Source of the DNA: a virus | Taxonomy: Duplodnaviria; Caudoviricetes | Virus record (IMG/VR): IMGVR_UViG_3300011114_000231 | Span: 1-56,938 of that record | DNA: 56,938 bases | Strand: one strand, 5' to 3' | Shown here: one piece after another, positions 1 to 55,767 of the stretch | How positions within the stretch are numbered: position 1 is the first letter of the stretch | Layout: every line of letters begins with the position of its first letter | Position numbers and translations under genes: made by a program | The notes under the pieces: model-generated | What the model was told of the DNA's origin: nothing | Databases searched by the model: none | Seen by the model: the letters and a program-made list of their open reading frames with translations, nothing else

Positions 1-127
1 TCTGTGTTTTTTAATGTTATGCGTTCGTTTCCAAAATTGTATTCCCAATTATATGTAAAGTGCGGTACTAATTACTTAACATGTAAACTTATATATCCCC
101 ATACATTTAGCATCACATTATATTCAA
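1..127. repeat. Direct terminal repeat, copy 1 (assembly overlap of circular contig)
   Basis: 1-127 is identical to 56812-56938; 127 equals a common assembler k-mer length. Confidence 0.95.
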
Positions 128-155
128 AAACACAGATTTTACAGATTGTTGTGCC

Positions 156-168
156 TAACATATTGATT
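156..168 (-). promoter_or_regulatory. IHF-binding site
   Basis: Minus strand reads AATCAATATGTTA, an exact WATCAANNNNTTR match; a near-match partner (AACCAATATGTTA) lies at 56757-56769 on the + strand. Confidence 0.55.
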
Positions 169-265
169 TCATTGCACTTTCTTAATCTATTTTTTAGCTG
201 TTAAGTTAGATAAAACATCTTGACAATCTATATTTCCGCTAAACTTACAGCCCCAAACGGCAAAC

Positions 266-294
266 TTGACAGGCCGCCCGATCCGTGCTAGGAT
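266..294 (+). promoter_or_regulatory. Sigma70-type early promoter
   Basis: TTGACA (266-271), 17-nt spacer ending TGc, TAGGAT (289-294), upstream of the + strand operon. Confidence 0.7.
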
Positions 295-362: not shown

Positions 363-722
363 ATGAAGCAAGTTAAGAACGTACTTAACAGTAATATGCG
401 TAAACTTGTAACGGCCCACATTCCATTCATCAATGGTAACAAGACTGTGTTTGCCCATCTGAAAGACAACGGTATCTATGTTGTGTATTCTTATGGCTAT
501 CACTACCCAATGTTAATTTGGGAGCCTGTCTCTGGTATGTGGTTTGCCAATGAGGACAAGTCTACCCGTACTACTTCCATGCACAAATCTAAGACCCGTC
601 CTTATAACATTACAAGTTATAACCTTCGTACTGATGCAATGATCGAACTGTCCTACAATGGTTATGCATCGTTAGCTAACAAGCGTATGAATGGTGGGTT
701 TATCTTAGTGGAGGCGGCATGA
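363..722 (+). CDS. Conserved phage early protein (YSYG...TTSxH motif family)
   Basis: ORF with GGAG RBS; VYSYGYHYP and STRTTSMH motifs recur in small phage early proteins. Confidence 0.65.
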   Translation: MKQVKNVLNSNMRKLVTAHIPFINGNKTVFAHLKDNGIYVVYSYGYHYPMLIWEPVSGMWFANEDKSTRTTSMHKSKTRPYNITSYNLRTDAMIELSYNGYASLANKRMNGGFILVEAA

Positions 723-886
723 CACAAGAACTTATCTCACTAGCCAACGATCTGTTGGTTAAGTTGTTACGTAATCTTGATGAGGCTAAGAGTATCAATG
801 CTCCTACAATATATATTGATATGATTCAGTCTCAGATTGATGATGTTGTTGGTATTATATCAAATGGAGAGAATGAAAATGACTAA
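719..886 (+). CDS. Hypothetical protein, 55 aa (not in ORF track)
   Basis: ATGA overlap with the upstream stop, GGAGG RBS at 710-714; MTQELISLAN...ENEND*. Confidence 0.65.
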   Translation: MTQELISLANDLLVKLLRNLDEAKSINAPTIYIDMIQSQIDDVVGIISNGENEND

Positions 887-1061
887 GACAGCATTGAAAC
901 TATACATCTTGAGGGATGTTAGTGGAGCCGTAGTGAAAGACGCTAGTGGTTCCCCACTGTACTTTTCCGACAAGATGGTAGCCAAGGCTAATCGTGCTGT
1001 TGGTCAGCACGTTTCCTATGGTCCTGATCACAAGAAAACAACCAGCAAAAAGGGTAACTAA
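873..1061 (+). CDS. Hypothetical protein
   Basis: GGAG RBS before MKMTKTALK; tightly packed between neighbours. Confidence 0.6.
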   Translation: MKMTKTALKLYILRDVSGAVVKDASGSPLYFSDKMVAKANRAVGQHVSYGPDHKKTTSKKGN

Positions 1062-1062
1062 C

Positions 1063-2055
1063 ATGCGTCCCAACCATATCAAAGATACTATCAAGTCACT
1101 TAACCCACTCCAGATTGCAGTGTGCATTGAGGGTGCTGTTGGTGTTGGTAAATCCAGCATTGTAAAGTCTGTTGCTAAAGACTTGGATGTTCACTGTGTC
1201 CTTAGAAACATGGCAACAATGCTCGTCGAGGACTTCGGTATTCCATCTATCTCTGATGATACTGTTAAGTATAAACTTATTGATTGGTATCCTGCCAAGG
1301 GTTCCAAGTGGGATGACGGTCGTGGTGGTATCCTGTGCTTCGATGATCGTAATCAGGCTGGTACTGATCAGCAGAAACTATTGGCCCATCTTATCCAAGA
1401 ACGTGATCTGCATGGTGTACCTATGGCTGACGGCTGGCAAGTTATCTCCACTGGTAACAGGCAGAGTGATCGTGCTGGTGCTAATCGTGTCTTGTCTCAT
1501 CTCCGTAATCGTGAAGCGTTGATTAACTATGACTTTCACCTTGATGACTGGACTGGTTGGGCATTGGAGAATGGTGTTAACCCTATCGTGGTTAGTTTCC
1601 TGCGTTTCAAACCAGACTTAGCCGCCGCTCATGATCCATCCAAAGATGTTAGCCCGACAATTCGTGGTTGGACTGAGCGTATTAGTCCTGCTGTTGGTGT
1701 TATACCATCAGACTGTGAGTTTGAGTATTTCACTGGTGTTGTTGGCGAGAGTGCCGCCGCTTACTTTACAACATATCTCAAGTTGTATCGTAAACTGCCT
1801 AATGTAGATGCTCTGTTGCTTAACCCGTCTAGTTACGATGTACCAACTGATCTTGGTGTACTCCATGCTATCTCTGGAGCCATTGCTCATCGTGCTACAG
1901 CGTCTAACTTTGATCGTGTTTGCTCTTTTGCAGAGCGTATGCCTCCAGAGTTCAGTGTTCTTACCATCAGCTATGCAACACGTAAGAACCCAGACTTGGC
2001 TAATACCAGTGCCTTCACTAACTGGGCAGTCAAGCACCAAGATGTTTTGTTTTAA
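1063..2055 (+). CDS. MoxR/CbbQ-like AAA+ ATPase
   Basis: Walker A GAVGVGKS, Walker B GILCFDD, STGN sensor 1, LRNR arginine finger, SPTIRGW sensor 2-like; start placed at MRPNH. Confidence 0.88.
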   Translation: MRPNHIKDTIKSLNPLQIAVCIEGAVGVGKSSIVKSVAKDLDVHCVLRNMATMLVEDFGIPSISDDTVKYKLIDWYPAKGSKWDDGRGGILCFDDRNQAGTDQQKLLAHLIQERDLHGVPMADGWQVISTGNRQSDRAGANRVLSHLRNREALINYDFHLDDWTGWALENGVNPIVVSFLRFKPDLAAAHDPSKDVSPTIRGWTERISPAVGVIPSDCEFEYFTGVVGESAAAYFTTYLKLYRKLPNVDALLLNPSSYDVPTDLGVLHAISGAIAHRATASNFDRVCSFAERMPPEFSVLTISYATRKNPDLANTSAFTNWAVKHQDVLF

Positions 2056-2111
2056 GGTCGAAACAGGGGATTTATCCCCTGTCCACTGGTTAGTCCAGTG
2101 CTGATGAGACC
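2056..2111 (+). ncRNA. Hammerhead ribozyme, type II topology
   Basis: GGTC-GAAA-CAGGGGA(TTTA)TCCCCTG-TC^-CACTGG(TTAGT)CCAGTG-CTGATGA-GACC: full catalytic core, three perfect stems, GUC cleavage triplet, predicted cut after 2083. Confidence 0.9.
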
Positions 2112-2138
2112 ATCAGTAACAATAGTGGAGTGAAAGCT

Positions 2139-2990
2139 ATGAACCTATCTGATCGTGCTTTGTTAGTACAACTTAACATCTCTCAGTGGACCGCTCGTAA
2201 GTATGACAAACGAGCCACACAGCAGGTTGCTGATAGCAACAATACAACTATGGCGGCTGGTCGCTATAATAAGTCTCTGTTGCCTATGAATGATTATCTT
2301 GATCGTGTTCACAAGAAAGCTACGGCTATCCGTACTAAGTATTACCAGAACACATTGCCTTGGGGCATTGAGGGTACACAGATGTTACCATCTGCTAATT
2401 ACCTTAGCTTTATGACAGAGTTTCGTAAGGAAAAGGCTGAGTGGGAGCGTTTAGTCCATGACTTTACCGATAACTACGATGACCTATGCCATAATGCTCA
2501 GCGTTTTCTGGGTGATCTGTTTAACCCTGCTGATTATCCAACTCGTTCAGAGATCGAACGTAAGTTCAAGATTGATATGGCTATCTTTCCTGTACCTTCT
2601 GCTGATTTTAGGGTGCAGTTGTCTAACTCAGAACTTGACACCATCCAGAGAGATGTTGAGGCAAGACTTCGTGAAGCTAGTGCTACCGCTATGAAAGATG
2701 TTTGGTCACGTTTGTTTGAACGTGTTCAGCATATGGCTGATAAGTTAGCTGATCCTACAGCTATCTTTCGTGACAGCATGATCGAAAATGCCAGAGAAAT
2801 CTGTGCCATGTTGCCACGTCTTAACTTTGCTGATGATGCTAACTTGGAGAATATGCGTCAGCAAGTTGAGAGTAAGATTGCCAAGTATCATCCTGATGCT
2901 TTGCGTAATGACCCTGACCTTCGTCGTGATACAGCGGCAGAAGCTAAGGCTATCATGGACAAAATGTCCGTATTCATGACTGGTATGTGA
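2139..2990 (+). CDS. DUF3150-like helical protein of the AAA-VWA module
   Basis: LVQLNISQWTARKYD N-terminus and FNPADYP motif; sits between AAA ATPase and VWA genes; GGAG RBS. Confidence 0.7.
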   Translation: MNLSDRALLVQLNISQWTARKYDKRATQQVADSNNTTMAAGRYNKSLLPMNDYLDRVHKKATAIRTKYYQNTLPWGIEGTQMLPSANYLSFMTEFRKEKAEWERLVHDFTDNYDDLCHNAQRFLGDLFNPADYPTRSEIERKFKIDMAIFPVPSADFRVQLSNSELDTIQRDVEARLREASATAMKDVWSRLFERVQHMADKLADPTAIFRDSMIENAREICAMLPRLNFADDANLENMRQQVESKIAKYHPDALRNDPDLRRDTAAEAKAIMDKMSVFMTGM

Positions 2991-3000
2991 GGAGATTACC

Positions 3001-4137
3001 ATGACACAAGAACTTTCACGTCGAGTTTCCAAGGCTAAAACAACCCTGTTGTTAGACCAAAAGAGTGCCTTCATTGGCTCTCTTGCTCTTGGTTTGCCTA
3101 CTGTTATCACAGATAAGGTCAAGACTGCCGCTACTGACGGCAGGGTTATCATGTTTAACCCAGAGTTCTGTGCTGATCTGACTGATGAGGAGATGGTATT
3201 CCTCATTGCTCATGAGACCATGCATCCAATGCTTGAGCATAACTATCGTTTGCAAGGCAGAGACCATGTTAGATGGAACAAAGCCGCTGATTACGTAATC
3301 AACCAGCTACTTGTTGAGGAAAAGATCGGTAAGTTCATTGATGGAGGCTGTCTTAACGACAGCCTCTACAAGTCTGGTAATGGTATTACCGACAACATCT
3401 ATGGCATGTTGCCAGATGAGAGCAATGGCAATGGCTCTGGATCAGGTAATGGCGGTATTGGTGATGATATTATCCCCAGTGAAGCCACTGGTGCTGATCA
3501 AGAGGCAGAGATCGGCGAGTGGAAACTCAAGGTAGCTAATGCGGCTCAAGCCGCTAAACTTATGGGTTCACTTAGTGCCAACATGGAGCGTTTTGTTGGT
3601 GAATTGCTTGAGCCAAAGGTAGATTGGCGTGATGTACTACGTGACTTTGTGTTCAAAGCTAAGACTGATGAGCGTAGTTTTGCACGACCTAACCGTAGGT
3701 TTATCAGCCAAGGTGTCTATCTGCCTTCTGTCACTGGTGAAACACTAGGCGATATTGTCATAGCTATTGATTGCTCTGGTTCTATTGGAGCCAAAGAGAT
3801 TGATATGTTTGCCGCAGAGATGAAGGCAATCAAATCTGACGGAAGTCCTACCGCTATGCACGTGGTCTATTTTGACCATGCTGTCTGTCACTATGACAAG
3901 TTCGGTCCTGATGAGGAACTTGTTGTTAAACCACGTGGTGGTGGCGGTACTGCGTTCAGTCCTGTGTTCAAATACATAGAGGACCATGACATAGAGCCTG
4001 TGGCTTGTGTGTTCCTTACTGATCTGTACTGTGATGATTACGGCCCAGCACCAGAGTATCCTGTACTCTGGGCTGTATTCAATGGCCCAAAAGAACCCGT
4101 TGCACCATTTGGTCGGGTAGTAAAGGCAGTAGCATGA
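3001..4137 (+). CDS. DUF2201-type putative metallopeptidase fused to VWA-like domain
   Basis: TAATDG, HExxH (AHETMH), WNKAADYVIN, MIDAS DCSGS, GGGGT, FLTDL. Confidence 0.88.
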   Translation: MTQELSRRVSKAKTTLLLDQKSAFIGSLALGLPTVITDKVKTAATDGRVIMFNPEFCADLTDEEMVFLIAHETMHPMLEHNYRLQGRDHVRWNKAADYVINQLLVEEKIGKFIDGGCLNDSLYKSGNGITDNIYGMLPDESNGNGSGSGNGGIGDDIIPSEATGADQEAEIGEWKLKVANAAQAAKLMGSLSANMERFVGELLEPKVDWRDVLRDFVFKAKTDERSFARPNRRFISQGVYLPSVTGETLGDIVIAIDCSGSIGAKEIDMFAAEMKAIKSDGSPTAMHVVYFDHAVCHYDKFGPDEELVVKPRGGGGTAFSPVFKYIEDHDIEPVACVFLTDLYCDDYGPAPEYPVLWAVFNGPKEPVAPFGRVVKAVA

Positions 4138-4307
4138 ACGAAATACTTATTGCTGGGTTAGTTGTTACTAACCTTATTCTGTGTGCTTGGATTATGCTAC
4201 TTGAGCGTAAACTTAGTTCACTTAATTACATTCTCTATAGCGTCGCCATTGGCGACGTTACTGTTACTGTAGTTGATGAATCTATTGTGATCAAAGAGGA
4301 GAAATGA
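4134..4307 (+). CDS. Small membrane protein, 57 aa (not in ORF track)
   Basis: ATGA overlap; N-terminal hydrophobic helix ILIAGLVVTNLILCAWIMLL. Confidence 0.6.
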   Translation: MNEILIAGLVVTNLILCAWIMLLERKLSSLNYILYSVAIGDVTVTVVDESIVIKEEK

Positions 4308-4309
4308 TC

Positions 4310-4960
4310 ATGGCTATTGTACGTTTTTCTAATGAGTTGCAGTCTGCTATACTTACCAAAGCAAGCCAAACATTTGTTCCCCGTATTACAGCGGCGACTA
4401 ACAATATCCCTATGTCTGCTGAAGAACTATATGACAGGATATTTTCACGTTACTTGCCGCATATGGGTATGCTTCCACCAGAGTTCTTTAACTCAACTAG
4501 TATGTTTGGCATACACTCTGTCCATGAAGTACTGTTAAACCATAACTTCAATCTAACAACACCTAAGTTGTTCCCATATAAACTTGGACCACAGCCACAC
4601 TTCAAAGCTACTTTTGACTTTGGTACAGGTGGTACTAGCTATAAACTTATACCAGATGGCACTGGTATATGGGATGATCTTGTCGAGATGGTTCAAACTC
4701 GTAATAATAATATCAAAGCTATAGAAGATCAGCTTAACAAGTTCAAAGATAACTTGCGTGTTATTATGACAACACATTCTACATTAGCACCAGCACTAAA
4801 GGCATGGCCCCCACTGTGGGACTTTGTGCCTGACTCATACAAAGATAAACATCGTGAGATTAAGGAGCGTAAGAAGAACGACAGCGTTAATCTGTCTGAG
4901 GTTATGGACTTGGACTCCATGACTTCTGTGGTTGTGGCAAGCAAATTCTTGGGGAAATAA
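4310..4960 (+). CDS. Nmad5-like (nucleotide modification associated domain 5) protein
   Basis: C-terminal TLAPALKAWPPLWDFVP resembles the Nmad5 T.xxL..WP....LP signature; GAGGAG RBS. Confidence 0.5.
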   Translation: MAIVRFSNELQSAILTKASQTFVPRITAATNNIPMSAEELYDRIFSRYLPHMGMLPPEFFNSTSMFGIHSVHEVLLNHNFNLTTPKLFPYKLGPQPHFKATFDFGTGGTSYKLIPDGTGIWDDLVEMVQTRNNNIKAIEDQLNKFKDNLRVIMTTHSTLAPALKAWPPLWDFVPDSYKDKHREIKERKKNDSVNLSEVMDLDSMTSVVVASKFLGK

Positions 4961-4961
4961 C

Positions 4962-5807
4962 ATGCAAAAGTATCCACATCAGCGTAGTGGTAATCAGAAA
5001 CTTATCACAAGTTATACCATGTTGAATAATATGGTGAGTAAGTTGCGCTTTCCCCAAAAGGGGAAGGCGTTAAACCATACGTTCAGAGCGTTCAAAACTG
5101 GTGATACCATACAGGTATGGATTTGTGATGGTCCTAATAAGTCTGTCCACCTGTGTGACCTGACACCTGACAACGTGTTGACGTTTGTTGCTAGCACATT
5201 GAGTATTCGTAACAAAGCACAGACCATAGTTGGTTCGCTACATACCTATCTGCCTGTGTTCTTTACACGGTTCGGTATGGGTAAGTACCGCATAGCAAGC
5301 TATGAGATGGTATTTAATGAGCATAAATCGTTCTGGGATTATTGGAACAACGGTGGTAGCACAACATCGCCACAGTACTTTGCTGGTATACAGTTTGATA
5401 TGGCTAGTGGTGCGTGTCTTAATCGACGGCCTGATCTTAAACACCAAGTTGTATCGGAAGTACGGCGTCAATGGCTAAAAGATATTGCACAATGGCGCAA
5501 AGGCATTGCATTACGTAGCAAATTAGGTGTGCTAGATGCCATAGCACTGGAAGAAAACTTCTTTAAGAGGAACTATAGCAAGCGTTTGGATACTCTATTG
5601 CTTTGCAACCACGTTGTTAAGGCCATAAAGGAACAAGACTTTAGCAAAGATACTCTGGACGTTATCGTATTTAACCTTGGCGTGGCGTATAGGTCGGGGT
5701 TTAGCACGGCTCATCTAGATAATTTCTTTAAGGAACATAGCGTCCAACTGCGTATGGCGTATGGCGTGTTCGGCGAGCACAACAAAAATATTTTTATACA
5801 AACTTAA
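4962..5807 (+). CDS. Hypothetical protein
   Basis: Long ORF in operon; no recognisable motif. Confidence 0.7.
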   Translation: MQKYPHQRSGNQKLITSYTMLNNMVSKLRFPQKGKALNHTFRAFKTGDTIQVWICDGPNKSVHLCDLTPDNVLTFVASTLSIRNKAQTIVGSLHTYLPVFFTRFGMGKYRIASYEMVFNEHKSFWDYWNNGGSTTSPQYFAGIQFDMASGACLNRRPDLKHQVVSEVRRQWLKDIAQWRKGIALRSKLGVLDAIALEENFFKRNYSKRLDTLLLCNHVVKAIKEQDFSKDTLDVIVFNLGVAYRSGFSTAHLDNFFKEHSVQLRMAYGVFGEHNKNIFIQT

Positions 5808-5810
5808 CCC

Positions 5811-5839
5811 TTGCGTTAAGTATCTGCCTATGCCTATAT
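5811..5839 (+). promoter_or_regulatory. Alphaproteobacterial RpoD-like promoter
   Basis: cTTGCGT-N17-CTATAT in the intergenic gap, close to the rhizobial CTTGAC-N17-CTATAT consensus. Confidence 0.5.
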
Positions 5840-5866
5840 GATACACCTGTCACATAAGAGGTGGTC

Positions 5867-6130
5867 ATGAGAGTATACCAGAGGCAGAGAACACCAACAC
5901 TAAAGCCGCCCGTTAAAGGACGGGCGGTTCATCCCTTCGTTGTATGGATGTGGAAGGAGATTAACAACCAGAGAGCATCACAAGAGGACGTTGCTACTAG
6001 GTCTGGCATATCATCTAGTGCCATGAGGAAGTGGAGAACAGGATTACAAGCCCCAACCCTTGCCGCTATGGAGGCAATCATAAACACGTTGGGGTATGAT
6101 CTTGTTATTAGGAGCAAGAAAGATGAGTAG
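5867..6130 (+). CDS. XRE/Cro-like HTH transcriptional regulator
   Basis: SQEDVATRSGISSSAMRKWRTG...PTL HTH pattern. Confidence 0.85.
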   Translation: MRVYQRQRTPTLKPPVKGRAVHPFVVWMWKEINNQRASQEDVATRSGISSSAMRKWRTGLQAPTLAAMEAIINTLGYDLVIRSKKDE

Positions 6131-6611
6131 AACTAAATTCAAACATCACGTACTGACCAAGTACTTTATCGAGAACCCACTAGCTACACCCAGAGAAGCG
6201 GCGGCGGCATGTGGAACATCGTGGCAGTATGCCTACTATGTTATCTCTAAGAGGCAGACACCTAAAGAAGTGTTTGTTGCTGAGTCAAAAGCAAAGACAG
6301 ACAAAGATGTTTTTGTGAAGCACGACAAGAACAAGTTACCTTGGCACTTGCTACCCACTGATGCAGTAGAGGAAGTGTTGAAGGTGCTAGCCTACGGGGC
6401 CAAGAAATACTCAGCTAATAATTGGTGCGCTGGTGCTGACTGGAGCCGCTACTATGACGCTATGCAAAGACACCTGTGGTCATGGTGGGCTGGAGAAAAC
6501 TTAGATGAGGAGACTAGGAAGTCGCATCTGGCACATGCCGCATGTTGCTTGTTGTTCCTCATTGCCTACGAGAAACGTAACATTGGAACAGATGATAGGA
6601 GCAAGCCATGA
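6123..6611 (+). CDS. dATP/dGTP diphosphohydrolase-domain protein (DUF5664-like) with N-terminal HTH-like segment
   Basis: KHDKNK.PWHLLP, YGAKKYSANNW, RYYDAMQRHL, SHLAHAAC motifs. Confidence 0.85.
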   Translation: MSRTKFKHHVLTKYFIENPLATPREAAAACGTSWQYAYYVISKRQTPKEVFVAESKAKTDKDVFVKHDKNKLPWHLLPTDAVEEVLKVLAYGAKKYSANNWCAGADWSRYYDAMQRHLWSWWAGENLDEETRKSHLAHAACCLLFLIAYEKRNIGTDDRSKP

Positions 6612-6994
6612 AATCCAGTGACGTACTTAGCAATGCAATGCACACATTGCGTGAAAGACAGCGCATATTCGGGGATGCTACCTCGGTGTATGCACGTGGT
6701 GCTGTAATAGCAACTGCGTTACGTGACACAAACACAAACACGTTTGACGTTGTTGTGTCAGAGATCAGTAACAAGTTTAGTAAGCTGTCACAAAACCGTA
6801 TGCACTTGGAGACATGGGTAGAACTATGTCTGGATGTAGCTATCGCGGCTGAACTTGCAATGGAACTGAACATTGTAAATCCTTCTGTGACTATGGCAAA
6901 TTTCAAAGATGATGTTGCCCGTGAACTTGAGGCACAGATTGCTGAAGAAGCAAAGCAGATGGCTCAGAGTATCCATAACATGGATAGGCAATGA
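6608..6994 (+). CDS. Hypothetical protein, weakly DUF6378-like
   Basis: L..A...RERQ..FG N-terminus; expected catalytic-looking residues appear degenerate. Confidence 0.45.
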   Translation: MKSSDVLSNAMHTLRERQRIFGDATSVYARGAVIATALRDTNTNTFDVVVSEISNKFSKLSQNRMHLETWVELCLDVAIAAELAMELNIVNPSVTMANFKDDVARELEAQIAEEAKQMAQSIHNMDRQ

Positions 6995-7218
6995 AGATTG
7001 ACCCAATCATAAAGAAAGCACTGGAAGAAATTCCAGTGCCATACACACTGGTCAAATCTAAAGACCATTACTTTGTACAAGTTGAAGGTTATCCGCGAGT
7101 TATTATTGCGGGTAATCACCAGAGAACTAAGTGGCACGAAGTACGTGGCACAGTAACAAATATAAATAGATTGGTGCGATCTATAAGTGGAGGTTGTGAT
7201 GATGTACCCACCAAGTAA
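6991..7218 (+). CDS. Hypothetical protein
   Basis: ATGA-coupled ORF. Confidence 0.65.
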   Translation: MKIDPIIKKALEEIPVPYTLVKSKDHYFVQVEGYPRVIIAGNHQRTKWHEVRGTVTNINRLVRSISGGCDDVPTK

Positions 7219-7435
7219 TATATCTAATAATCCATTCGTTGTTTCTGGAGGAACATCTAATCTGATTAGGATTACTGATGGTAAGGATAAACATGTTGAT
7301 ATAACTATGGAGGATTACAAAGAACTATTATTTATCAAAGACTTTATGCACCTGTTTATCCAGCACAATGAGCAAGCCAATAAGATTTGGGTAGCAATGA
7401 AAGCGCAACGCTTATTCTTGGGAGAAAATAAATGA
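7199..7435 (+). CDS. Hypothetical protein
   Basis: GGAGG RBS; coupled to the next ORF. Confidence 0.6.
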   Translation: MMYPPSNISNNPFVVSGGTSNLIRITDGKDKHVDITMEDYKELLFIKDFMHLFIQHNEQANKIWVAMKAQRLFLGENK

Positions 7436-7686
7436 ACAAGGTAGAACGTAAAAGTATGGACCCTGTGTTGTCGGCGGCTGTCGAGTGGACCACAGCACGT
7501 TGGCATATACAACAATCCCCACCAGAGAACCAGCACGAGGCTGATCTATTGAACAGTGCAGAAACCTTATTGCGTAATAGGTTTGAGAGCCTATTGAAGG
7601 ACTATTATAAAGATGTTGCAGAGCATGAGGCTTTGCAGGACCAACTCGTCAAAGACATCAGTGAACTGTTGGGAGAAGTAAAATGA
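7432..7686 (+). CDS. Hypothetical protein
   Basis: GGGAG RBS, ATGA overlaps at both ends. Confidence 0.65.
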   Translation: MNKVERKSMDPVLSAAVEWTTARWHIQQSPPENQHEADLLNSAETLLRNRFESLLKDYYKDVAEHEALQDQLVKDISELLGEVK

Positions 7687-7802
7687 AATATGTTGTGGTG
7701 TTGCTGGCACTGATGCTTTCAGGGTGCAGTGTGGTTGTGTATAGGGGCGAACCAGTTGATCCCCTCACCCGCAGTACGTACCCACCTGTGGTGAGCAAAT
7801 GA
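7683..7802 (+). CDS. Small lipoprotein, 39 aa (not in ORF track)
   Basis: MKYVVVLLALMLSG-C signal with lipobox LSGC; GGGAG RBS; ATGA overlaps at both ends. Confidence 0.7.
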   Translation: MKYVVVLLALMLSGCSVVVYRGEPVDPLTRSTYPPVVSK

Positions 7803-8236
7803 CTTGGGATAACAGGTTCTTTGATCTAGCAGACATGGTTGGATCATGGTCTAAAGACCCATCAACAAAGGTCGGGGCGGTGATTGTTCGCCCTGATCGT
7901 ACCATTGCAAGCGTTGGGTACAATGGTTTCCCCCGTGGCGTGGATGATAGCCCTGAGATTTATGATGATAGACCAAAGAAGTATATGCGTGTCGTTCACG
8001 CAGAGGCTAATGCTATCCTGTCTGCACGTGAGCCGTTGCACGGTTATACTCTTTACGTAACACCACTGCACCCATGTGCAACATGTTCTGGATTGATCAT
8101 CCAGTCGGGGATCAAGGTTGTTAACTACGCAATGACCAAAGACAACACTCGTAATGAAGCGTGGACTGAACACTTCAACACAATGACAGATATGTTTCTG
8201 CAAGCTGGCATTAGATATTATGGGAGATACAGATAA
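7799..8236 (+). CDS. dCMP deaminase
   Basis: SKDPSTKVGAVI, GYNGFPRG, HAEANAI, PCATC zinc motifs. Confidence 0.93.
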   Translation: MTWDNRFFDLADMVGSWSKDPSTKVGAVIVRPDRTIASVGYNGFPRGVDDSPEIYDDRPKKYMRVVHAEANAILSAREPLHGYTLYVTPLHPCATCSGLIIQSGIKVVNYAMTKDNTRNEAWTEHFNTMTDMFLQAGIRYYGRYR

Positions 8237-8427
8237 TGGAAATTTTATTGGCGGCGTTTCTTATGGCGGCATCGCCAGCCCCATGCAAGACTGTCGTAGC
8301 TATCAAACAAGTGGTCGCTACTAATGAATGGTTTATCAAGCGTACTGAGTCAGGTCCGTGGGTTAGGGTGGACCAGAACTATATCGTTGGACTGAAGTGC
8401 TTCGTCGAGAACGTGGAGATGGTGTGA
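8236..8427 (+). CDS. Hypothetical exported protein
   Basis: N-terminal hydrophobic signal-like segment; coupled start. Confidence 0.55.
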   Translation: MEILLAAFLMAASPAPCKTVVAIKQVVATNEWFIKRTESGPWVRVDQNYIVGLKCFVENVEMV

Positions 8428-8711
8428 TGAACCCGATACAACTAACACACACCTTATATGGGGTGGTATATATGTCGCAAGGTATTGATAACCTTATCAA
8501 TACTATCAACAACAACAATGCAAACGCGAGTAAGACAGAGCAAGATATAATCGTTTGCCTTAGAGATATGTATCAAAACATGACTATTATAGCTAAATCA
8601 TTGGCTCCCATGTTGGAACTGGCAGAGCATGTGATGAAACATCACCCGCAAATAGCAAGTGACTTCGCTACTACAAAAGGTGCGACTAACAAAATACTGG
8701 GGGGCAAGTGA
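8427..8711 (+). CDS. Hypothetical protein
   Basis: ORF filling the gap up to polA. Confidence 0.6.
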   Translation: MNPIQLTHTLYGVVYMSQGIDNLINTINNNNANASKTEQDIIVCLRDMYQNMTIIAKSLAPMLELAEHVMKHHPQIASDFATTKGATNKILGGK

Positions 8712-10588
8712 TGGATATTGTAACGATTGACTTTGAAACATACTACGACAAGGACTATTCCCTGTCCAAGATGACGACTGAAGCCTATGTAAGAGACCCT
8801 CGCTTCGAGGTTATCGGTGTAGGCATCAAGGTCAATGATCACCCCACTGACTGGTACAGTGGGGATAATGTCGGCAGATTTTTGAAGTCTCTTGACTACA
8901 CCAAGCGGGCTATACTCTGCCACAACACAGCGTTCGATGGTGCTATCCTATCGTGGCACTACGGTATCAAGCCAGCGTTCTGGTTGGACACTCTGTCGAT
9001 GGCTCGACCATTGCACAACATATCTGTAGGTGGTTCGCTCAAGAACCTAGTCGCGTACTACAAGCTGGGCGAGAAGGGCGACGAAGTTATTAACGCTATG
9101 GGTATGCGACGGTCTGACTTCACGACGGAAGGGCTTGCGCGGTACGCATCCTACTGTGTCAACGATGTGGAGTTAACCTACAAGTTGTTCCGTAAGATGG
9201 TTAAGGGGTTTCCATCCAGTGAGTTGCGGCTGATTGACCAGACGTTACGTATGTACACTGAGCCTACGCTTGAGATCGACACGACAGTCTTACACAAACA
9301 TCTTGAGGATATTCTGGAGAACAAGACCACACTAGTGGAGACCCTCGAACTTGGGTGCAGTGAGGATGAAGCTAAGTCTATCCTTATGTCCAACTTTAAG
9401 TTTGCAGATTTTCTACGGGCTATCGGGGTTGAGCCACCGACTAAGCATAGCAAGGCGACAGGTCAGGAGGCATATGCTTTCAGCAAGTCAGACAAAGCGT
9501 TTACTGATCTGTTGGATCACCCCAATATACGTGTTGCCAATGCAGTGGCGGCTAGGCTTGGCGTGAAGTCTACCATTGAAGAGACCCGCACTCGGTCTCT
9601 GTTAGGTGTAGCTGAGCGTGGCACTCTCCCGATCATGCTTAATTACTACGGCGCACACACTGGTCGGTTCAGTGGCGGGGATAAGATGAACCTTCAGAAC
9701 CTACCGAGAGGTGGTTTGCTACGCCGCAGTATAACAGCACCCAACGGTAAAGTTCTTATAGCTTGTGACTCCGCCCAGATCGAAGCCCGTGTTGTTGCGT
9801 GGTTGGCTGGACAAAAGGACTTAATTGCCGCCTTTGCCGAAGGCCGCGATGTCTACTGCGAGTTCGCATCAGAGGTGTATGGTCGCCAGATAACCAAGGC
9901 TGATAAGGTCGAGCGGTTTGTCGGCAAGACTTGTATCTTGGGGCTTGGCTACGGCATGGGTTCGCTCAAGTTCGAAAACACTCTAGCCATAGGGCAAGCT
10001 GGTATCAGCGTTAAGATGGACTCAGATGAGGCTAAGAACGCAGTCAATCTATACAGAACAAAATACCACAAGGTCGCTAGACTTTGGTCCAGATGCAGTG
10101 TCGCGTTGGGTAACATGATTAATGGTCAGGAGTTCTGGTTGAACGATGACATACCTATCATCAAGACGGGCAAGGACTGCATAATTCTCCCCAATAAGTT
10201 GGCAGTTCGTTACCCTCTACTAACCAGGGGTGAGAACTACTCATACGCAGGTGACATAAGAGTGTACAAAGACGCAATTAAAGACCGCGTTATGGGCAAA
10301 CCAATAAACACAGACAAGTTTACACATATTTACGGTGGCAAGGTGACAGAAAATGTCGTGCAAGCTATCGCTAGGATTGTCGTGTCCGAACAGATGACCA
10401 AGATAGGCCATAGATATAAGGTTGTGTTGCAAGTACACGACGAGGTGGTCGTTCTTGTGGATGAGCATGAAGCTGAGAGAGCCAAGGCATACATGATTGA
10501 GGTCATGTCAACGCCGCCATCATGGGCGTTGGATTTGCCAGTGGCTTGCGAAGCTACCATTGGTAACAACTATGCGGAGTGTAAGTGA
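8708..10588 (+). CDS. polA: DNA polymerase family A with 3'-5' exonuclease
   Basis: Exo I DFET, Exo II HNTAFD, Exo III YCVND, TGRFS, motif A CDSAQIEAR, motif B KTCILGLGYG, motif C VHDE. Confidence 0.96.
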   Translation: MMDIVTIDFETYYDKDYSLSKMTTEAYVRDPRFEVIGVGIKVNDHPTDWYSGDNVGRFLKSLDYTKRAILCHNTAFDGAILSWHYGIKPAFWLDTLSMARPLHNISVGGSLKNLVAYYKLGEKGDEVINAMGMRRSDFTTEGLARYASYCVNDVELTYKLFRKMVKGFPSSELRLIDQTLRMYTEPTLEIDTTVLHKHLEDILENKTTLVETLELGCSEDEAKSILMSNFKFADFLRAIGVEPPTKHSKATGQEAYAFSKSDKAFTDLLDHPNIRVANAVAARLGVKSTIEETRTRSLLGVAERGTLPIMLNYYGAHTGRFSGGDKMNLQNLPRGGLLRRSITAPNGKVLIACDSAQIEARVVAWLAGQKDLIAAFAEGRDVYCEFASEVYGRQITKADKVERFVGKTCILGLGYGMGSLKFENTLAIGQAGISVKMDSDEAKNAVNLYRTKYHKVARLWSRCSVALGNMINGQEFWLNDDIPIIKTGKDCIILPNKLAVRYPLLTRGENYSYAGDIRVYKDAIKDRVMGKPINTDKFTHIYGGKVTENVVQAIARIVVSEQMTKIGHRYKVVLQVHDEVVVLVDEHEAERAKAYMIEVMSTPPSWALDLPVACEATIGNNYAECK

Positions 10589-10674
10589 TGGATAGGGATG
10601 ACAAGATCGCGTGGATCAAGATCATTATCGTATATATCTTAATAACAATCTTAGCTATATGGGTGAGCCTATGA
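10588..10674 (+). CDS. Small membrane peptide, 28 aa (not in ORF track)
   Basis: MDRDDKIAWIKIIIVYILITILAIWVSL*; overlaps polA stop (TGATG) and gcrA start (ATGA). Confidence 0.5.
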   Translation: MDRDDKIAWIKIIIVYILITILAIWVSL

Positions 10675-11177
10675 ACGTAGAGAAACTTATTGAGATGTGG
10701 AGAGCAGGTGCTAGCGGCGCTGTTATTGCGGCAAGCCTTGGCGTAACTAGAAGCGCAGTGCTTGGTAAAGTATATAGGCTACGGGAGCAGGGCATACTTG
10801 CTTATAGAAATGCTGAGAAGTCCAAGGTCAAGGTTAAAGAGATCAAAGAACCCAAGGAAGATACCACAAATGTGGTTAGACTGGAACGTAAAGTCCCCCA
10901 TACAACACAGGGAGGGAGCATGTTACGCATACGCCCAGAAGAACCAGAGCAAAAGCCAGTGGTTCCACCACCAATTCCCCAGTATGACCCAGACAAACCA
11001 TACCTAAACATACTGCAACTTAACTTTAATAAGTGTCGGTATATTATGACGGATGATACGTCGGTCAACGCATTTTATTGTGGCGAAACGGTACACCGTA
11101 GGTCATACTGCAAGGCTCACGCAGATATATGTTTAGTGCCAGCACCGAAAAAAGTTAGGGACACAAATGCAGCTTAG
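10671..11177 (+). CDS. gcrA: GcrA-like cell-cycle transcriptional regulator
   Basis: N-terminal LW..G.S...IA..LGVTRSAVLGKVYRL HTH; C-terminal LxxLxxxxCRY...FYCG...YCxxH. Confidence 0.88.
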   Translation: MNVEKLIEMWRAGASGAVIAASLGVTRSAVLGKVYRLREQGILAYRNAEKSKVKVKEIKEPKEDTTNVVRLERKVPHTTQGGSMLRIRPEEPEQKPVVPPPIPQYDPDKPYLNILQLNFNKCRYIMTDDTSVNAFYCGETVHRRSYCKAHADICLVPAPKKVRDTNAA

Positions 11178-11826
11178 CCATTCCTTCTCATCTATCAAGT
11201 TGTACGAAAACTGCCCACTCAGGTACTACCATCAGCGCGTTACCAAGAGCGTGGTAGATAAGGGCGGGGAAGCAAGCCAGTATGGGGAACGCATCCATAA
11301 ATTTCTTGAGGAAAGATTGCTCGGAGGAGAGTTGTCCTCAGAGATCGCACACCTTGAGCCGACAGTGGAAGCTATCCTAAAACTTACTGGAAGCGGTGCG
11401 CTTGAGGTTGAGAAGGAACTAACTCTCAATAAGGAACTTACACCCACAGGGTGGTGGGATAAGGACGCATGGATGAGGTCCAAGCTGGACGTGCTGATCC
11501 TGCACAAGAACTCTGCCATAGTTATGGATTGGAAAACAGGCAAGCGTAGACCAGACTTCTCCCAGTTAGAACTGTTTGCTTTGCAGGTGTTCTCCCACTA
11601 CCCTGAGATCGAAACTGTACGCACAAGTTTTGTTTGGATACAGGATAAGGCTATGGACAAAGACACTTACAAGCGGTCTCATGCCCCTGATATGTGGCGT
11701 AAATTGATGAGCCGTATCAATAGGATAGAGCAATCTTTAGAGAAAGATGTATGGCCAGCTAGGCCAAGTGGCTTGTGTAAATTTTGCCCTTGCAAAAACT
11801 TTTGTGATTTTGCACCTAATACTTGA
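11167..11826 (+). CDS. PD-(D/E)XK Cas4/RecB-like exonuclease
   Basis: N-terminal CP, KLD...DWKTG, QLELF, C-terminal CKFCPCKNFC Fe-S-type cysteines. Confidence 0.88.
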   Translation: MQLSHSFSSIKLYENCPLRYYHQRVTKSVVDKGGEASQYGERIHKFLEERLLGGELSSEIAHLEPTVEAILKLTGSGALEVEKELTLNKELTPTGWWDKDAWMRSKLDVLILHKNSAIVMDWKTGKRRPDFSQLELFALQVFSHYPEIETVRTSFVWIQDKAMDKDTYKRSHAPDMWRKLMSRINRIEQSLEKDVWPARPSGLCKFCPCKNFCDFAPNT

Positions 11827-11852
11827 CACTGATGTAAAGTAGGGGTATATAG

Positions 11853-12197
11853 ATGGCTACACCAGAGGCTAAGGTCAAAGCCAAGATTGATAAGATGTTA
11901 TCCCAGTTCAAAGGTCTGTGGTTCTATAGTCCACAGTCAGGTGTTTATGGGGTAGCGGGGATACCTGATCGTATTGCCTGTGTGGACGGGCATTTCGTAG
12001 GGATAGAAGCCAAAGCAGACAGAACAAAGAAGCCTACCGCCTTGCAACGGCAGTGTATGGCTAAGATAGAAGCGGCAGGGGGCAAGTGCTTCGTCGTGTA
12101 TGATGACGAGACACTAGAGATAGCCAGAGAATACATTTCGGGAGTGCTAAATGTTAGTTATAGAACAAGCCAAGGCTCTAGCCCTAAAGTTGAATAG
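11853..12197 (+). CDS. VRR-NUC domain nuclease (putative resolvase)
   Basis: PE..VK, GIPD, IEAK, PTALQ motifs. Confidence 0.88.
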   Translation: MATPEAKVKAKIDKMLSQFKGLWFYSPQSGVYGVAGIPDRIACVDGHFVGIEAKADRTKKPTALQRQCMAKIEAAGGKCFVVYDDETLEIAREYISGVLNVSYRTSQGSSPKVE

Positions 12198-13713
12198 CCC
12201 TGCACGGGTTCTGGATACTATCCGTGACTCCAAGATGGTCACGCTTCGCGGACAACAAGTTGTTGTAACACCCCATGACATTGATAGTGTGATTGCGCTT
12301 AACGATCTCGGTATCAGTGCGCCTTCTCCTATCCTGCATTACTATGACTGGCCCAGTCAGTTCAAACCATACGACCATCAGCGCAAGACAGCCGCCTTTC
12401 TAACAACCCACAAGAAGTGTCTGGTTCTTAATGAGATCGGCACTGGCAAGACGCAGAGTGCGTTATGGGCGGCTGACTATCTGATGAGTGAGGGCATCGT
12501 TAACAAAGTGCTTATCATCTCTCCGCTCTCTACACTGGAGCGGGTGTGGGGTGACGCTATTTTCAAGGGGTTCTACGAGCGCAGAGCCATTGTCCTGCGT
12601 GGTACGGCTGAGCGTAGGAAGCGGCTGATCCAGAAGGATGCTGACTTCTATATCGTAAACCATGATGGGTTCTCTATCATTGCTACTGAAGCTATCAATA
12701 TGTTTGATCTTGTTATCGTTGATGAGGCGGCTGTGCTTCGCAATGGGCAGACGCAAAGGTTCAAACAGTTCTACAAATGGATGGAGAAGAATCCACAAGC
12801 TAGGCTTTGGTTGATGACAGGTACACCCACTCCCAATGCACCAACAGATGCGTGGGCGTTGGCTAAGCTAGTTGAAAGTCCGTATATCACTGAGCGTTGG
12901 ACTGCGTTCAGAGACCAGACCATGTACAAATACAAGATGCACACGTGGATTGCGCGTCAGGATAGTGTTGACATAGTGCAACACGTTCTCCAGCCAGCTA
13001 TCAGATATACGAGAGATGATTGTTTCGACCTACCTGATACCGTTGTGCAGACACGTAGCGTTGATCTTACACCAGAGCAAGTCAAACACTTCAACGCCAT
13101 GATGAAACATCTTGTGGTGGAGATGAAGAAGTCAGGTGATGAGTCAACCATCAGTGCGGTTAATGAAGCAGTCAAACTCCAGAAGCTGGTGCAGATTGCA
13201 TGTGGTGTGGCATACGACGACAATGGAAACGATGTGGAGGTTGACTGTTCCCCTCGTGTTAATGCTGTCAAAGAGATCATAGACCTCTGTGACGAGAAGA
13301 TTATTATCTTTGTGCCTCTGACAGGAACTCTACATATGTTGGAGCGTGAGTTATCGAAGCACTGGACAGTCGGTGTGGTCAATGGCGCGGTCTCATCTAC
13401 CAAGCGAGATGTGATTTTTGATAACTTCCAGAACCACAAAGACCCGCGTATTCTCATCGCTCATCCAGCTACGATGGCGCATGGGTTAACGCTGACATCT
13501 GCCAGCACAATCATATGGTACGGCCCGATAAACAGTAACGAGCAATACACACAGGCCAATGGTCGCATTGAGCGTATTGGTAAGCGTCACATATCGAACG
13601 TGATCCATATAGAGTCTACAACAGTCGAGCATAAAATGTATGAGCGGCTGTCTAACAAACAGAAACTACAGGGACTTCTATTAGATTTGATAAAGGAGCA
13701 AACATATGACTGA
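12151..13713 (+). CDS. SNF2-family helicase
   Basis: PYDHQ, GTGKT, DEAA, TGTP, HGLTL, QANGRIERIG. Confidence 0.92.
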   Translation: MLVIEQAKALALKLNSPARVLDTIRDSKMVTLRGQQVVVTPHDIDSVIALNDLGISAPSPILHYYDWPSQFKPYDHQRKTAAFLTTHKKCLVLNEIGTGKTQSALWAADYLMSEGIVNKVLIISPLSTLERVWGDAIFKGFYERRAIVLRGTAERRKRLIQKDADFYIVNHDGFSIIATEAINMFDLVIVDEAAVLRNGQTQRFKQFYKWMEKNPQARLWLMTGTPTPNAPTDAWALAKLVESPYITERWTAFRDQTMYKYKMHTWIARQDSVDIVQHVLQPAIRYTRDDCFDLPDTVVQTRSVDLTPEQVKHFNAMMKHLVVEMKKSGDESTISAVNEAVKLQKLVQIACGVAYDDNGNDVEVDCSPRVNAVKEIIDLCDEKIIIFVPLTGTLHMLERELSKHWTVGVVNGAVSSTKRDVIFDNFQNHKDPRILIAHPATMAHGLTLTSASTIIWYGPINSNEQYTQANGRIERIGKRHISNVIHIESTTVEHKMYERLSNKQKLQGLLLDLIKEQTYD

Positions 13714-14113
13714 GCCTAATGTCGATCAGGTTATCGCGGCTTACGTGAAGATGCGGGAGAAGAAGTCACGCATGGAAGCTGAGGTTAAAGCTGAAGTTGC
13801 AAAGATCAATGAGAAACTTATGAAGCTGGAAGGATGGCTTCGTGAGAAAGCAGATGAGCAAGGTGTAACATCCTTCAAAACTAATCATGGTACTGCGTTC
13901 ATGACCACTGTGGACTTCGCGTCCGTTGCTGATTGGGATGCTGTGCTTAACTTCATCAAAGAGAACGATGCGTATGACATGCTGGAACGTCGTGTGAGTA
14001 AGACGGCAGTGCGTGGGTACATCGAGGCTAACAAATCTATTCCTGCTGGTATTAACTATGGGACCAAGCTGGAAGTTAATGTACGTAAACCAACTGCGAA
14101 AGTGGAGGACTAA
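13706..14113 (+). CDS. Conserved phage replication-module protein
   Basis: Coiled coil followed by KTNHGT and DWDA..FI motifs; AAGGAG RBS. Confidence 0.7.
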   Translation: MTEPNVDQVIAAYVKMREKKSRMEAEVKAEVAKINEKLMKLEGWLREKADEQGVTSFKTNHGTAFMTTVDFASVADWDAVLNFIKENDAYDMLERRVSKTAVRGYIEANKSIPAGINYGTKLEVNVRKPTAKVED

Positions 14114-14114
14114 T

Positions 14115-14423
14115 ATGTTTGGGTCTTGGGTACGCAAACAAGTAGCTGACGCTATGTATGAGAACAGCATGGACCAAAAAACACCTGCTACTAAACTTGG
14201 TCTATATGGTGAATCATATATAAGTGTACATACTATTTCCAATGGTTACTTATTACAGGTCAACAGTATTAATATAGGGGGTCCAACGATAGTTTATTGT
14301 AAGGACCAACAGGAAATCTCTGACCAGATTGTTACACTCCATGCTCGTGAACGCATGGGTATATCACCTAACGTCAAGATAGGGCCATTCATGTCTTCTG
14401 GCTCTGCCCAATCTTCTATTTAA
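14115..14423 (+). CDS. Hypothetical protein
   Basis: GGAGG RBS before MFGSW. Confidence 0.6.
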   Translation: MFGSWVRKQVADAMYENSMDQKTPATKLGLYGESYISVHTISNGYLLQVNSINIGGPTIVYCKDQQEISDQIVTLHARERMGISPNVKIGPFMSSGSAQSSI

Positions 14424-14446
14424 CCCGCTCAACACAGGAGAATCCT

Positions 14447-15415: not shown

Positions 15416-15686
15416 GCCACTCGACTTTCATAAGGTTGAGGCTTTGCGTAAGCACATGATACTAACGTCGTCTGACATGGCTAAAGTACTCGGAGTTTCT
15501 CGCGTGACCTACTACGGTTGGTTGCGCGGGAAAGCGGTTCGCCGCAAGAACGAGGATGAAGCTAAGAAGGCAGTGCGTAAACTGTTGGCTATCATGACTG
15601 ATCATAGCTGGCCCTCACCTGAGACCGTAGCCCTCGATCAAAAGCAGAGAAGCGAAAGATTGTTTGCTTTGCTAGGGCAGTATTAG
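15405..15686 (+). CDS. HTH DNA-binding protein
   Basis: LTSSDMAKVLGVSRVTYYGW HTH. Confidence 0.8.
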   Translation: MTHKPLDFHKVEALRKHMILTSSDMAKVLGVSRVTYYGWLRGKAVRRKNEDEAKKAVRKLLAIMTDHSWPSPETVALDQKQRSERLFALLGQY

Positions 15687-15741
15687 TAGACTGGATAGAC
15701 AGGGGGTAGGGAACTCCCTGTCACCCCCTTGGGAGAGTAAT

Positions 15742-55689: not shown

Positions 55690-55716
55690 GATTAGGCCAG
55701 ATCAAACGGTCTGGTG

Positions 55717-55744: not shown

Positions 55745-55767
55745 GTGTAAAACATGGAGGTGCCATC

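Follow-up and report, generated by a model that had tools for sequence, protein, structure and literature searches.

A type II hammerhead ribozyme beside the MoxR-type ATPase gene of a conserved ATPase-DUF3150-VWA module in uncultured phages

Hammerhead ribozymes and MoxR-type AAA+ ATPases with partner proteins containing a von Willebrand factor A (VWA) domain have each been described in phages. They occur together in the window analysed here, the whole 56,938-nt stretch of virus record IMGVR_UViG_3300011114_000231, in which a type II hammerhead directly follows the gene for a MoxR-type ATPase, and genes for a DUF3150-like protein and for a zincin-VWA fusion protein come next. RF02276 hammerheads in phage operons, the gp24/gp25 pair of phage N4, the pair of a MoxR ATPase and a peptidase-vWA protein in jumbo phages, and DUF3150 triads on plasmids were known before. 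The joint occurrence of DUF3150 and a zincin-VWA adaptor, shared by a large group of freshwater phages that are uncultured, is new. Judged from the sequences compared, it is also new that hammerheads of different types have repeatedly appeared and disappeared on both sides of the same ATPase gene.

The closest described ribozymes are the hammerheads of Rfam family RF02276 (Perreault et al. 2011, PMC3088659). In prophage operons, they flank genes and cleave polycistronic RNAs of about 2 kb. A pseudoknot between loop I and the 3' tail, common but not universal in the family, was found to be needed for fast cleavage at 0.5 mM Mg2+. The window hammerhead shares with this family the circular permutation and the invariant core, and like its members it is placed between cistrons of a phage operon. 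It differs in scoring 26.7 bits with RF02276 on 121 nt only, below the gathering score of 37, which is a curation threshold and not a structural feature, in lacking the pseudoknot, and in having a fixed 17-nt stem I hairpin, a GGUC/GACC stem II, and an invariant AUCAG tail able to pair with CUGAUG. The 'HHphage' element of haloviruses HF1 and HF2 is placed 13 nt 5' of an early helicase gene in the same paper, with a mapped 5' end within 3 nt of the cut. A hammerhead just 5' of a gene is also the arrangement in relatives of the window, mostly 6-49 nt 5' of the ATPase gene, but core variant, host domain, and downstream gene differ from HF1/HF2, and in the window itself the hammerhead follows the ATPase gene.

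For the proteins, AAA_5-clade rings that act together with a partner carrying a metal ion-dependent adhesion site (MIDAS), which grips the substrate, are familiar from the CbbQ-CbbO rubisco activase, RavA-ViaA, and midasin. To our knowledge, these machines contain no DUF3150 subunit, their adaptors lack a peptidase-like domain, and their substrates are unrelated. Closer in sequence are gp24, an AAA ATPase, and gp25, a vWFA protein, of phage N4, which are homologous to the window pair, adjacent, co-oriented, and located beside deaminase and replication genes; identity is 22-36% only. In a table of the roseophage paper (PMC2784036), the function of gp24/gp25-type proteins is listed as unknown. 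N4 and roseophage EE36phi1 contain no DUF3150 gene between the pair, and a search of the N4 region with our hammerhead model R1, introduced below, found no hammerhead. An N4-like nature of the whole phage was considered but is not supported: its 2428-aa protein is not similar to the virion RNA polymerase by tblastn and PHROGs revealed no N4 RNAPII. Iyer et al. 2021 (PMC7824862) describe jumbo phages of group 2.2 that encode a MoxR ATPase and a vWA 'cochaperone' fused to an N-terminal metallopeptidase, for which virion assembly with proteolytic processing is proposed by analogy with tail development of the Acidianus two-tailed virus. The domain architecture is the same as in the window, which adds the DUF3150 subunit, the location in the early/replication arm, and the ribozyme. 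The AAA_5-DUF3150-VWA triads of plasmids (IncC pSCEC2) and Burkholderiales follow the same three-part logic and order, with DUF3150 as the middle or an accessory gene, but their VWA partner is of the CobT/CobT_C type without zincin domain, their ATPase carries CbbQ_C, and the IncC triad is split by ssb, bet, and exo, unlike that of the window.

The features of the locus, all on the + strand of the window, are the following:

1063-2055 (+): ATPase gene, MoxR-type (AAA_5) AAA+ ATPase of 330 aa, homologue of N4 gp24
2056-2116 (+): hammerhead, type II ribozyme within the 83-nt gap 3' of the ATPase stop codon
2101-2116 (+): predicted competitor hairpin, in which CUGAUG/CAUCAG pairing would sequester the catalytic box
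2127-2141 (+): gene-2 start signals, Shine-Dalgarno sequence GGAG (2127-2130) and ATG (2139)
2139-2990 (+): gene 2, divergent DUF3150-family protein of 283 aa
3001-4137 (+): gene 3, zincin-like and VWA/MIDAS fusion protein of 378 aa, homologue of N4 gp25

The hammerhead starts right after the TAA of the ATPase gene and reads GGUC-GAA-(A CAGGGG auuuau CCCCUG U)-C-(CACUGG uuagu CCAGUG)-CUGAUGA-GACC. Stem II is formed by 2056-2059 with 2108-2111 (GGUC/GACC) and is followed by GAA (G12-A14) at 2060-2062, the stem III hairpin at 2063-2082, C17 at C2083, the stem I hairpin at 2084-2100, CUGAUGA at 2101-2107, and the AUCAG tail at 2112-2116. All core residues are in place, namely C3 U4 G5 A6 N7 G8 A9, G12 A13 A14, the pair A2063-U2082 (15.1-16.1), C17, and the pair G2108-C2059 (10.1-11.1). 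Stems I and III are capped and stem II is open, which is the definition of type II. The hammerhead that the initial annotation had placed between the first two genes is thus a complete one.

Searches with Rfam yielded nothing at gathering thresholds on the whole window and nothing at E<=10 on 3.6 kb. For comparison, 72 IMG/VR loci with the VWA protein were retrieved, and a scan for the motif plus stems found hammerheads in many of them. From the hammerheads of nine relatives, with the window's own group excluded, a covariance model, R1, was built. On 721 kb, it gave 30 hits, all on the coding strand, among them the window hammerhead with 40.2 bits (E 2.8e-7). On the window with filters off, the E-value was 2.3e-8; a second hammerhead was not found there, the next best match reaching 10.3 bits. 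The RF02276 gathering score was passed by five of the 16 hammerheads that R1 detected in 15 related loci. Among 23 distinct hammerhead sequences, 99.2% of the cells pair, and 15 of the 18 pairs show double, compensatory changes. None of 500 shuffles reached the observed pairing, slid registers pair to 32-55%, and counts anchored on the core, which are independent of the aligner, agree with the covariation result. At the ATPase|gene-2 junction itself, compensatory changes are found in stem III of locus L001. The R1 score and the covariation in relatives indicate that the ribozyme is real as a conserved structure.

Comparison of the relatives revealed a constant gene order and a variable ribozyme. 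The initial annotation had made its module depend on synteny in relatives, and all 66 of the 66 loci that contain the three genes show them in the order ATPase, gene 2, VWA; six more loci are cut off. In its conservation, the pair resembles core genes and not accessory genes that vary between phages. Fifty-nine loci are informative for the position of the hammerhead, having sequence upstream of the ATPase gene. A hammerhead is located at most 200 nt 5' of the ATPase start in 21 of them, 0.8-1.4 kb 5' of the gene in three, and between ATPase and gene 2 in two (L001 and L002), to which the window has to be added. Of five related genomes that are near-complete, four contain a single hammerhead, which in each case adjoins the ATPase gene, and the fifth contains none. 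In a tree of ATPase plus gene 2 (60 rows, quick IQ-TREE search), the window's group (support 100) lies inside a clade (97 in the Shimodaira-Hasegawa-like approximate likelihood ratio test, SH-aLRT) whose other 26 members have no hammerhead, and at least seven changes of hammerhead state are needed over the tree. A further example came from metagenome contig L241, with a gene-2 product 74% and a VWA protein 58% identical to those of the window. Its hammerhead is of the window type and located at the same junction, three bases past the ATPase stop codon, but stem I is CGUCAG/CUGACG instead of CACUGG/CCAGUG. This compensated stem at the same junction indicates that the element is kept by selection in that lineage. 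Since the side of the ATPase gene on which the hammerhead lies varies among relatives, its conserved role would be intercistronic self-processing at the border of the ATPase gene; an effect on the ratio of motor to adaptor is possible in the window's lineage only. A general link between hammerheads and MoxR genes was rejected: of the 80 other hammerhead-bearing viral loci listed, the triad is present in L122 alone, which is identical to the contig of L001, and of 80 metagenome loci listed, only in L225 and L241. A literature search found nothing on a hammerhead-MoxR link and nothing relevant on intercistronic hammerheads or on SXT cobS/cobT.

The AUCAG tail of the window hammerhead is shared by many others. 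In the predicted minimum free energy (MFE) fold of the window element, CUGAUG (2101-2106) is paired with CAUCAG (2111-2116). When viral contigs were scanned for GGUCGAAAC...CUGAUGAGACC and any tail was allowed, at least 120 stretches were obtained, with up to eight copies per contig. Among the matches listed, the tail was AUCAG in 12 of 99 unique GACC-class copies, about 0.1 being expected for a free 5-mer by our own arithmetic, and the core was sequestered in the predicted fold of 12 of the 12 AUCAG-tail copies versus nine of the 87 with other tails. At least 119 stretches were obtained from metagenomes when the AUCAG tail was included in the scan. The 16-mer at 2101-2116 of the window thus recurs in the 12 viral copies and in these metagenome stretches. 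Eighty loci among the latter contain 88 unique AUCAG-tail copies. In nearly all of them, stem I has either 6 bp and a loop of 5 nt or 7 bp and a loop of 3 nt, which makes a 17-nt hairpin as in the window. In this same set, the cleavage-site C is present in 84 of the 88 copies, and an A precedes stem II in every upstream class tallied (top-12 list, 86 of the 88 copies). The Rfam gathering score for hammerheads was reached by none of 27 AUCAG-tail copies from the 20 loci checked. By its sequence, the window ribozyme is a member of an abundant AUCAG-tail subclass, characterised by a GGUC/GACC stem II, the 17-nt stem I hairpin, the invariant tail, and the absence of a pseudoknot, and missed by Rfam at the gathering threshold (loci L088-L167 on viral contigs, L210-L289 in metagenomes), although this subclass may already be contained in the hammerhead alignments of Dataset S1 of PMC3088659.

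It is conceivable, though we consider it rather doubtful, that all of the following hold: that the AUCAG-tail type constitutes a subclass of its own among type II hammerheads, very common but for the most part un-annotated, that folding of the tail onto CUGAUG is a built-in switch, and that this type was independently captured at the ATPase|gene-2 junction. Such a switch could limit cleavage to a set fraction of transcripts, or it could lock the 3' product after the cut, making cleavage irreversible and leaving the new 5' end capped by two hairpins. Other lineages would have captured pseudoknot-type hammerheads on the opposite side of the same ATPase gene. If these independent captures of both types are true, RNA-level control of the MoxR module would have been selected repeatedly.

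Several of the loci obtained in these scans contain further elements. Hammerhead arrays are present on viral contigs L166, with eight in 3.6 kb at 9152-12752 (-), and L103, with five in 2.1 kb at 2701-4801 (+), approximately one per small gene. On the 1.4-kb metagenome contig L210, a Twister-P5 match (44.1 bits, gathering score 37.6) and an AUCAG-tail hammerhead share one strand at a distance of about 500 nt, the two elements being located at 117-173 (-) and 686-747 (-). On the 24.6-kb metagenome contig L223, a tRNA match (48.8 bits) and a short tmRNA-family match (51.1 bits; 76 nt versus a model of 374 positions) at 567-649 (-) and 1020-1095 (-) adjoin two hammerheads.

The three proteins were largely as named in the initial annotation. 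The ATPase reading frame extends from ATG at 1063 to TAA at 2053-2055. Its product matches Pfam AAA_5 with 23.6 bits (cut-off 22, E 5.7e-5) and PHROG 1297 'ATPase' with 4e-55, and N4 gp24 is found by tblastn with 23.5% identity (E 3e-10). Among solved structures, a profile of 28 homologues matches the AAA ring of midasin best (E 8.8e-13). In these 28 relatives, Walker A residues G24/G27/G29/K30 are near-invariant, Walker B D94 is invariant, and D94/D95 are conserved. From sequence, gene 1 specifies a MoxR-type AAA+ ATPase of the AAA_5 clade, for which a hexameric ring with ATPase activity and binding of the VWA partner are predicted.

For gene 2, the mechanical listing of open reading frames (ORFs) gave a GTG start at 2130. 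The start is most likely ATG 2139 with the Shine-Dalgarno sequence GGAG at 2127-2130, because relatives align from M1 of the ATG form. A direct comparison with Pfam DUF3150 (PF11348) stayed below the cut-off (E 0.075, 12.8 bits versus 24.9) but is colinear over residues 6-200, and PHROGs contained no match to gene 2. A profile search with gene 2 reached 9107 cluster representatives at E <= 1e-3. When 55 homologues were sampled from the best 150, all with E <= 1e-77 to the gene-2 profile, 15 matched PF11348 (best 3.7e-10), and the label 'DUF3150-like' is therefore fair. In Synechococcus phage MinM2, a 'DUF3150 domain-containing protein' is 31% identical (tblastn, E 4e-35), and the neighbours of its gene encode a VWA protein of the DUF2201 type and a MoxR family ATPase, constituting a cyanophage triad. 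The AlphaFold2 model of the gene-2 product, with a predicted local distance difference test score (pLDDT) of 81, combines an alpha/beta domain at the N-terminus with a helical bundle at the C-terminus.

DUF3150 genes were also searched outside phages. Bona fide members are present in five of 201 sampled Burkholderiales genomes. In four of the four bacterial loci examined, a CobT-like VWA gene is located directly downstream of DUF3150; an AAA_5/CbbQ_C gene is directly upstream in two, a few genes upstream in one, and was not seen in one. On plasmids, DUF3150 occurs in 1148 records, 970 of which are predicted to be conjugative. The gene order on IncC plasmid pSCEC2 is AAA, hypothetical, ssb, bet, exo, DUF3150, VWA; at 2176-10168 of this entry (L208), ssb, bet, and the lambda-exonuclease gene separate AAA from DUF3150-VWA, and a yfaE-like gene follows downstream. 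The interleaving with ssb-bet-exo suggests a link to functions in DNA recombination or replication.

Gene 3 gave clear matches to DUF2201_N (2.6e-43, 149 bits) and the VWA-like DUF2201 (4e-24, 85.5 bits), both above the Pfam cut-off. The HExxH and DCSGS motifs pointed out in the initial annotation are confirmed, HExxHxxxxH being encoded by nt 3211-3240 and DCSGS by nt 3769-3783. In 28 homologues of 38-97% identity, H71, E72, H75, and H80 as well as the MIDAS set D257, S259, S261, T317, and D341 are invariant, and HExxHxxxxH and DTSGS are retained in N4 gp25 and in the MinM2 VWA protein. The AlphaFold2 model has a pLDDT of 77. For its C-terminal domain, Foldseek returned MIDAS domains of the integrin I, VWF A, and MDN1 kind, and the N-terminal domain weakly resembles the minimal zincin selecase MJ1213 (Foldseek E 1.1e-2, template modelling score 0.46 on the target), to which the sequence profile likewise matches weakly (E 0.014). 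Since the site is invariant, the zincin domain is probably active. The family comprises 601 phage records and is commonly labelled 'HNH endonuclease' (in PHROG 1314 and in numerous GenBank records, that of N4 gp25 at L074 6165-7307 among them), while Pfam sees only DUF2201_N and DUF2201; the label looks like a propagated mis-annotation. A literature search found no functional study for DUF3150 or DUF2201, in agreement with the initial annotation, which knew of no defined target for the module. NCBIfam searches with the triad proteins gave nothing useful, and a DNA-level search of the 3-kb module against a phage collection gave no match.

In the 56.9-kb record, the three co-oriented genes, noted as such from the beginning, are located near the head of a + strand block (363-18591) of small early, nucleotide-metabolism, and replication genes, while the structural genes form a - strand block downstream of it. 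A 2428-aa ORF at 18588-25874 (-) matches phage records only with its last approximately 380-430 residues, the matches being Pseudomonas phage proteins and a 'DarB-like antirestriction protein' with 26-28% identity. Homologues of the last + strand ORFs of the window (55714-56169 and 56215-56385) are located directly upstream of the homologue of ORF 363-722 in L001 and L002. By this arrangement, the record seems to represent a permuted genome in its complete form; the + strand operon may start before position 1. A site at 266-294 (+), just 5' of ORF 363, resembles sigma-70 promoters more than any other in the region (TTGACA-17-TAGGAT, extended TG). It is a candidate operon promoter, although the overall promoter scan was not above shuffles (nine sites found versus 14.1 expected). 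No promoter-like or convincing terminator-like site was detected between the triad genes, which makes co-transcription the simplest reading.

The initial annotation assumed an alphaproteobacterial host, for which no support was obtained. The 20 runs listed as holding window DNA are all DNA runs from river, lake, and viral metagenomes, and no RNA run is among the matches listed. A contig scan with protein alignment identified two contigs with related phage-like sequence, L075 and L076, binned into metagenome-assembled genomes (MAGs) of an actinobacterium and of Burkholderiaceae (the second contig is 56.4 kb long), a weak hint at hosts only. No hammerhead was detected by R1 in either MAG.

Taken together, we consider it reasonably likely that the locus specifies a three-part remodelling machine of the MoxR type, that the operon mRNA is cut by its own hammerhead, and that the module acts in establishment or replication. 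In this machine, the AAA+ ring would be the motor, the VWA/MIDAS protein an adaptor with its own zinc-peptidase-like domain, and the DUF3150 protein an accessory subunit, probably sitting on the adaptor. The MIDAS site would grip an acidic residue of a substrate protein, and our best guess is ATP-driven remodelling of the substrate, maybe with clipping. A role in establishment or replication of the element in the cell is expected rather than one in virion assembly, because DUF3150 triads abound on conjugative plasmids and the module heads the replication arm; the same holds for host remodelling. The triad would be transcribed within a long + strand early/replication operon. The hammerhead, directly 3' of the ATPase stop codon and 23 nt 5' of the gene-2 ribosome-binding site, would cut the transcript after C2083 (2083|2084), approximately 43 nt 5' of the gene-2 Shine-Dalgarno sequence. 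Self-cleavage is predicted to yield 2',3'-cyclic phosphate and 5'-OH ends, so that the ATPase mRNA would end in the 8-bp stem III hairpin with the cyclic phosphate, and the gene-2/VWA mRNA would begin with a 5'-OH and the stem I hairpin. The products should separate, because only the 4-bp stem II holds them, and stability and translation of both mRNAs would then be uncoupled. Hairpin-capped 3' ends and 5'-OH ends slow exonucleases and the 5'-end-dependent RNase E. Operon processing of the same kind is carried out in phage T7 by host RNase III, and the same separating effect on mRNAs is used in synthetic 'ribozyme insulators'.

A number of observations weigh against this reading. The RF02276 score is below gathering. 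The pseudoknot of most relatives, formed by a UGGCU loop with an AGCCA tail or by the covarying AACC/GGUU and UGGUU/AACCA, is absent from the window's group. In the window, only a 4-bp GUUA/UAAC loop-tail pairing is possible, which is not kept in L002 (GAG triloop) or L241. The MFE fold sequesters six of the seven CUGAUGA nucleotides, and the active fold lies 2.4 kcal/mol above it by energies that ignore tertiary contacts and pseudoknots, while for most pseudoknot-type relatives the active fold is the predicted minimum. Absence of a hammerhead from 33 of the 59 informative relatives indicates that processing is dispensable for the module. For the proteins, sequence searches of the Protein Data Bank (PDB) with each member of the triad singly gave nothing significant. 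The gene-2 model had no Foldseek match in the PDB at E <= 0.001, and VIA-align wide, with the whole model as query, returned only generic four-helix bundles for residues 175-283 with Z ~10, within the range expected for helical bundles. No demonstration of peptidase activity for DUF2201_N was found in a literature search. MoxR ATPases are in general presented as chaperone-like remodellers in PMC3893208, and not as unfoldases feeding a protease. A structure prediction of the three-protein complex had been proposed with the initial annotation. When gene 2, and not the ATPase, was scored against its partners ATPase and VWA, the interaction prediction score from aligned errors (ipSAE) was 0.58 (median of 0.59, 0.47, and 0.58), with the verdict 'weak support'; the mark applied is reached by 58 of 80 solved complexes and two of 110 mismatched pairs, with seven of the 80 and both mismatches at 0.60 or under. 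Controls gave 0.26 at best (VWA replaced) and otherwise 0.00 and 0.00. The runs share at least 86% of the contacts with a partner pLDDT of at least 81, and this model hints that gene 2 leans on the VWA protein.

The most sceptical interpretation takes the gap for an intergenic spacer and nothing else, with a sequence that resembles a hammerhead by chance or is the relic of one and inactive. It could draw on the Rfam score below gathering, on the missing pseudoknot, and on the predicted fold, which favours the competitor hairpin. It is very improbable in view of the perfect core, the E-value obtained with an independent model, the compensatory changes at the same junction (stem III in L001, stem I in L241), and the recurrence of the same architecture in the metagenome stretches. 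A functional ribozyme might serve the specific purpose of separating the ATPase cistron from the gene-2/VWA cistrons, thereby setting the ratio of motor to adaptor or their timing, as the initial annotation suggested in terms of subunit stoichiometry. For the window's lineage this has some appeal: in the window as well as in L001, L002, and L241, the ribozyme is located exactly where the ATPase gene and gene 2 meet, and the competitor hairpin could make cleavage partial. That lineage is nested among the 26 ribozyme-less relatives (97 SH-aLRT), and its ribozyme subclass differs from the upstream ones, by which the junction ribozyme looks separately acquired and kept while stem I changed compensatorily. 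In 21 of the 59 loci, however, the ribozyme is 5' of the ATPase gene, so that all three cistrons share one product, and more than half have none. Ratio-setting is therefore not a conserved need of the module, and as an explanation of the ribozyme it is possible but not what we would expect.

Concerning the proteins, the initial annotation pictured a machine that recognises, unfolds, and cleaves its targets for host takeover or anti-defence, which is a reasonable but conjectural idea about the module. A counter-defence or takeover device that disassembles or cleaves a host protein would fit an early position in the operon and the distribution over phages and conjugative plasmids, both of which must establish themselves in a new cell. 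In the HIDEN-SEQ preprint (10.1101/2025.11.20.689424), a MoxR ATPase gene of phage Bas54 is reported to be required to overcome a predicted defence system, a recent and tentative lead for such a role. PADLOC gave no match for the ATPase or VWA protein and only a weak match of gene 2 to a SIR2 model (E 0.002, 14.8 bits), and the strict conservation, with the pair in hundreds of phages and the triad in all loci above, is unlike variable anti-defence cargo. We therefore regard this function as a tentative option only. Still less likely is a virion-assembly chaperone with a maturation protease, as put forward for group 2.2 jumbo phages in PMC7824862. Conservation of the pair like a core gene set in N4-like phages would agree with it, but the module heads the + strand nucleotide-metabolism/replication block while the structural genes are on the - strand. 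Moreover, AAA-DUF3150-VWA triads are common on conjugative plasmids, which have no virions, and occur on bacterial chromosomes, which argues against a role purely in virion assembly.

The proposed three-part remodelling machine with a probably self-processed operon mRNA bears on two fields. The MoxR/VWA pair of the N4 gp24/gp25 type is among the most widely conserved phage gene sets lacking an assigned role, and the DUF3150 subunit, the plasmid triads, and the invariant zincin and MIDAS residues narrow the hypotheses on its role from assembly towards establishment or replication. For phage ribozymes, the locus shows that hammerheads can come and go several times at the borders of a single gene, and since AUCAG-tail copies are missed by Rfam, current counts of ribozymes in phage genomes are probably underestimates.

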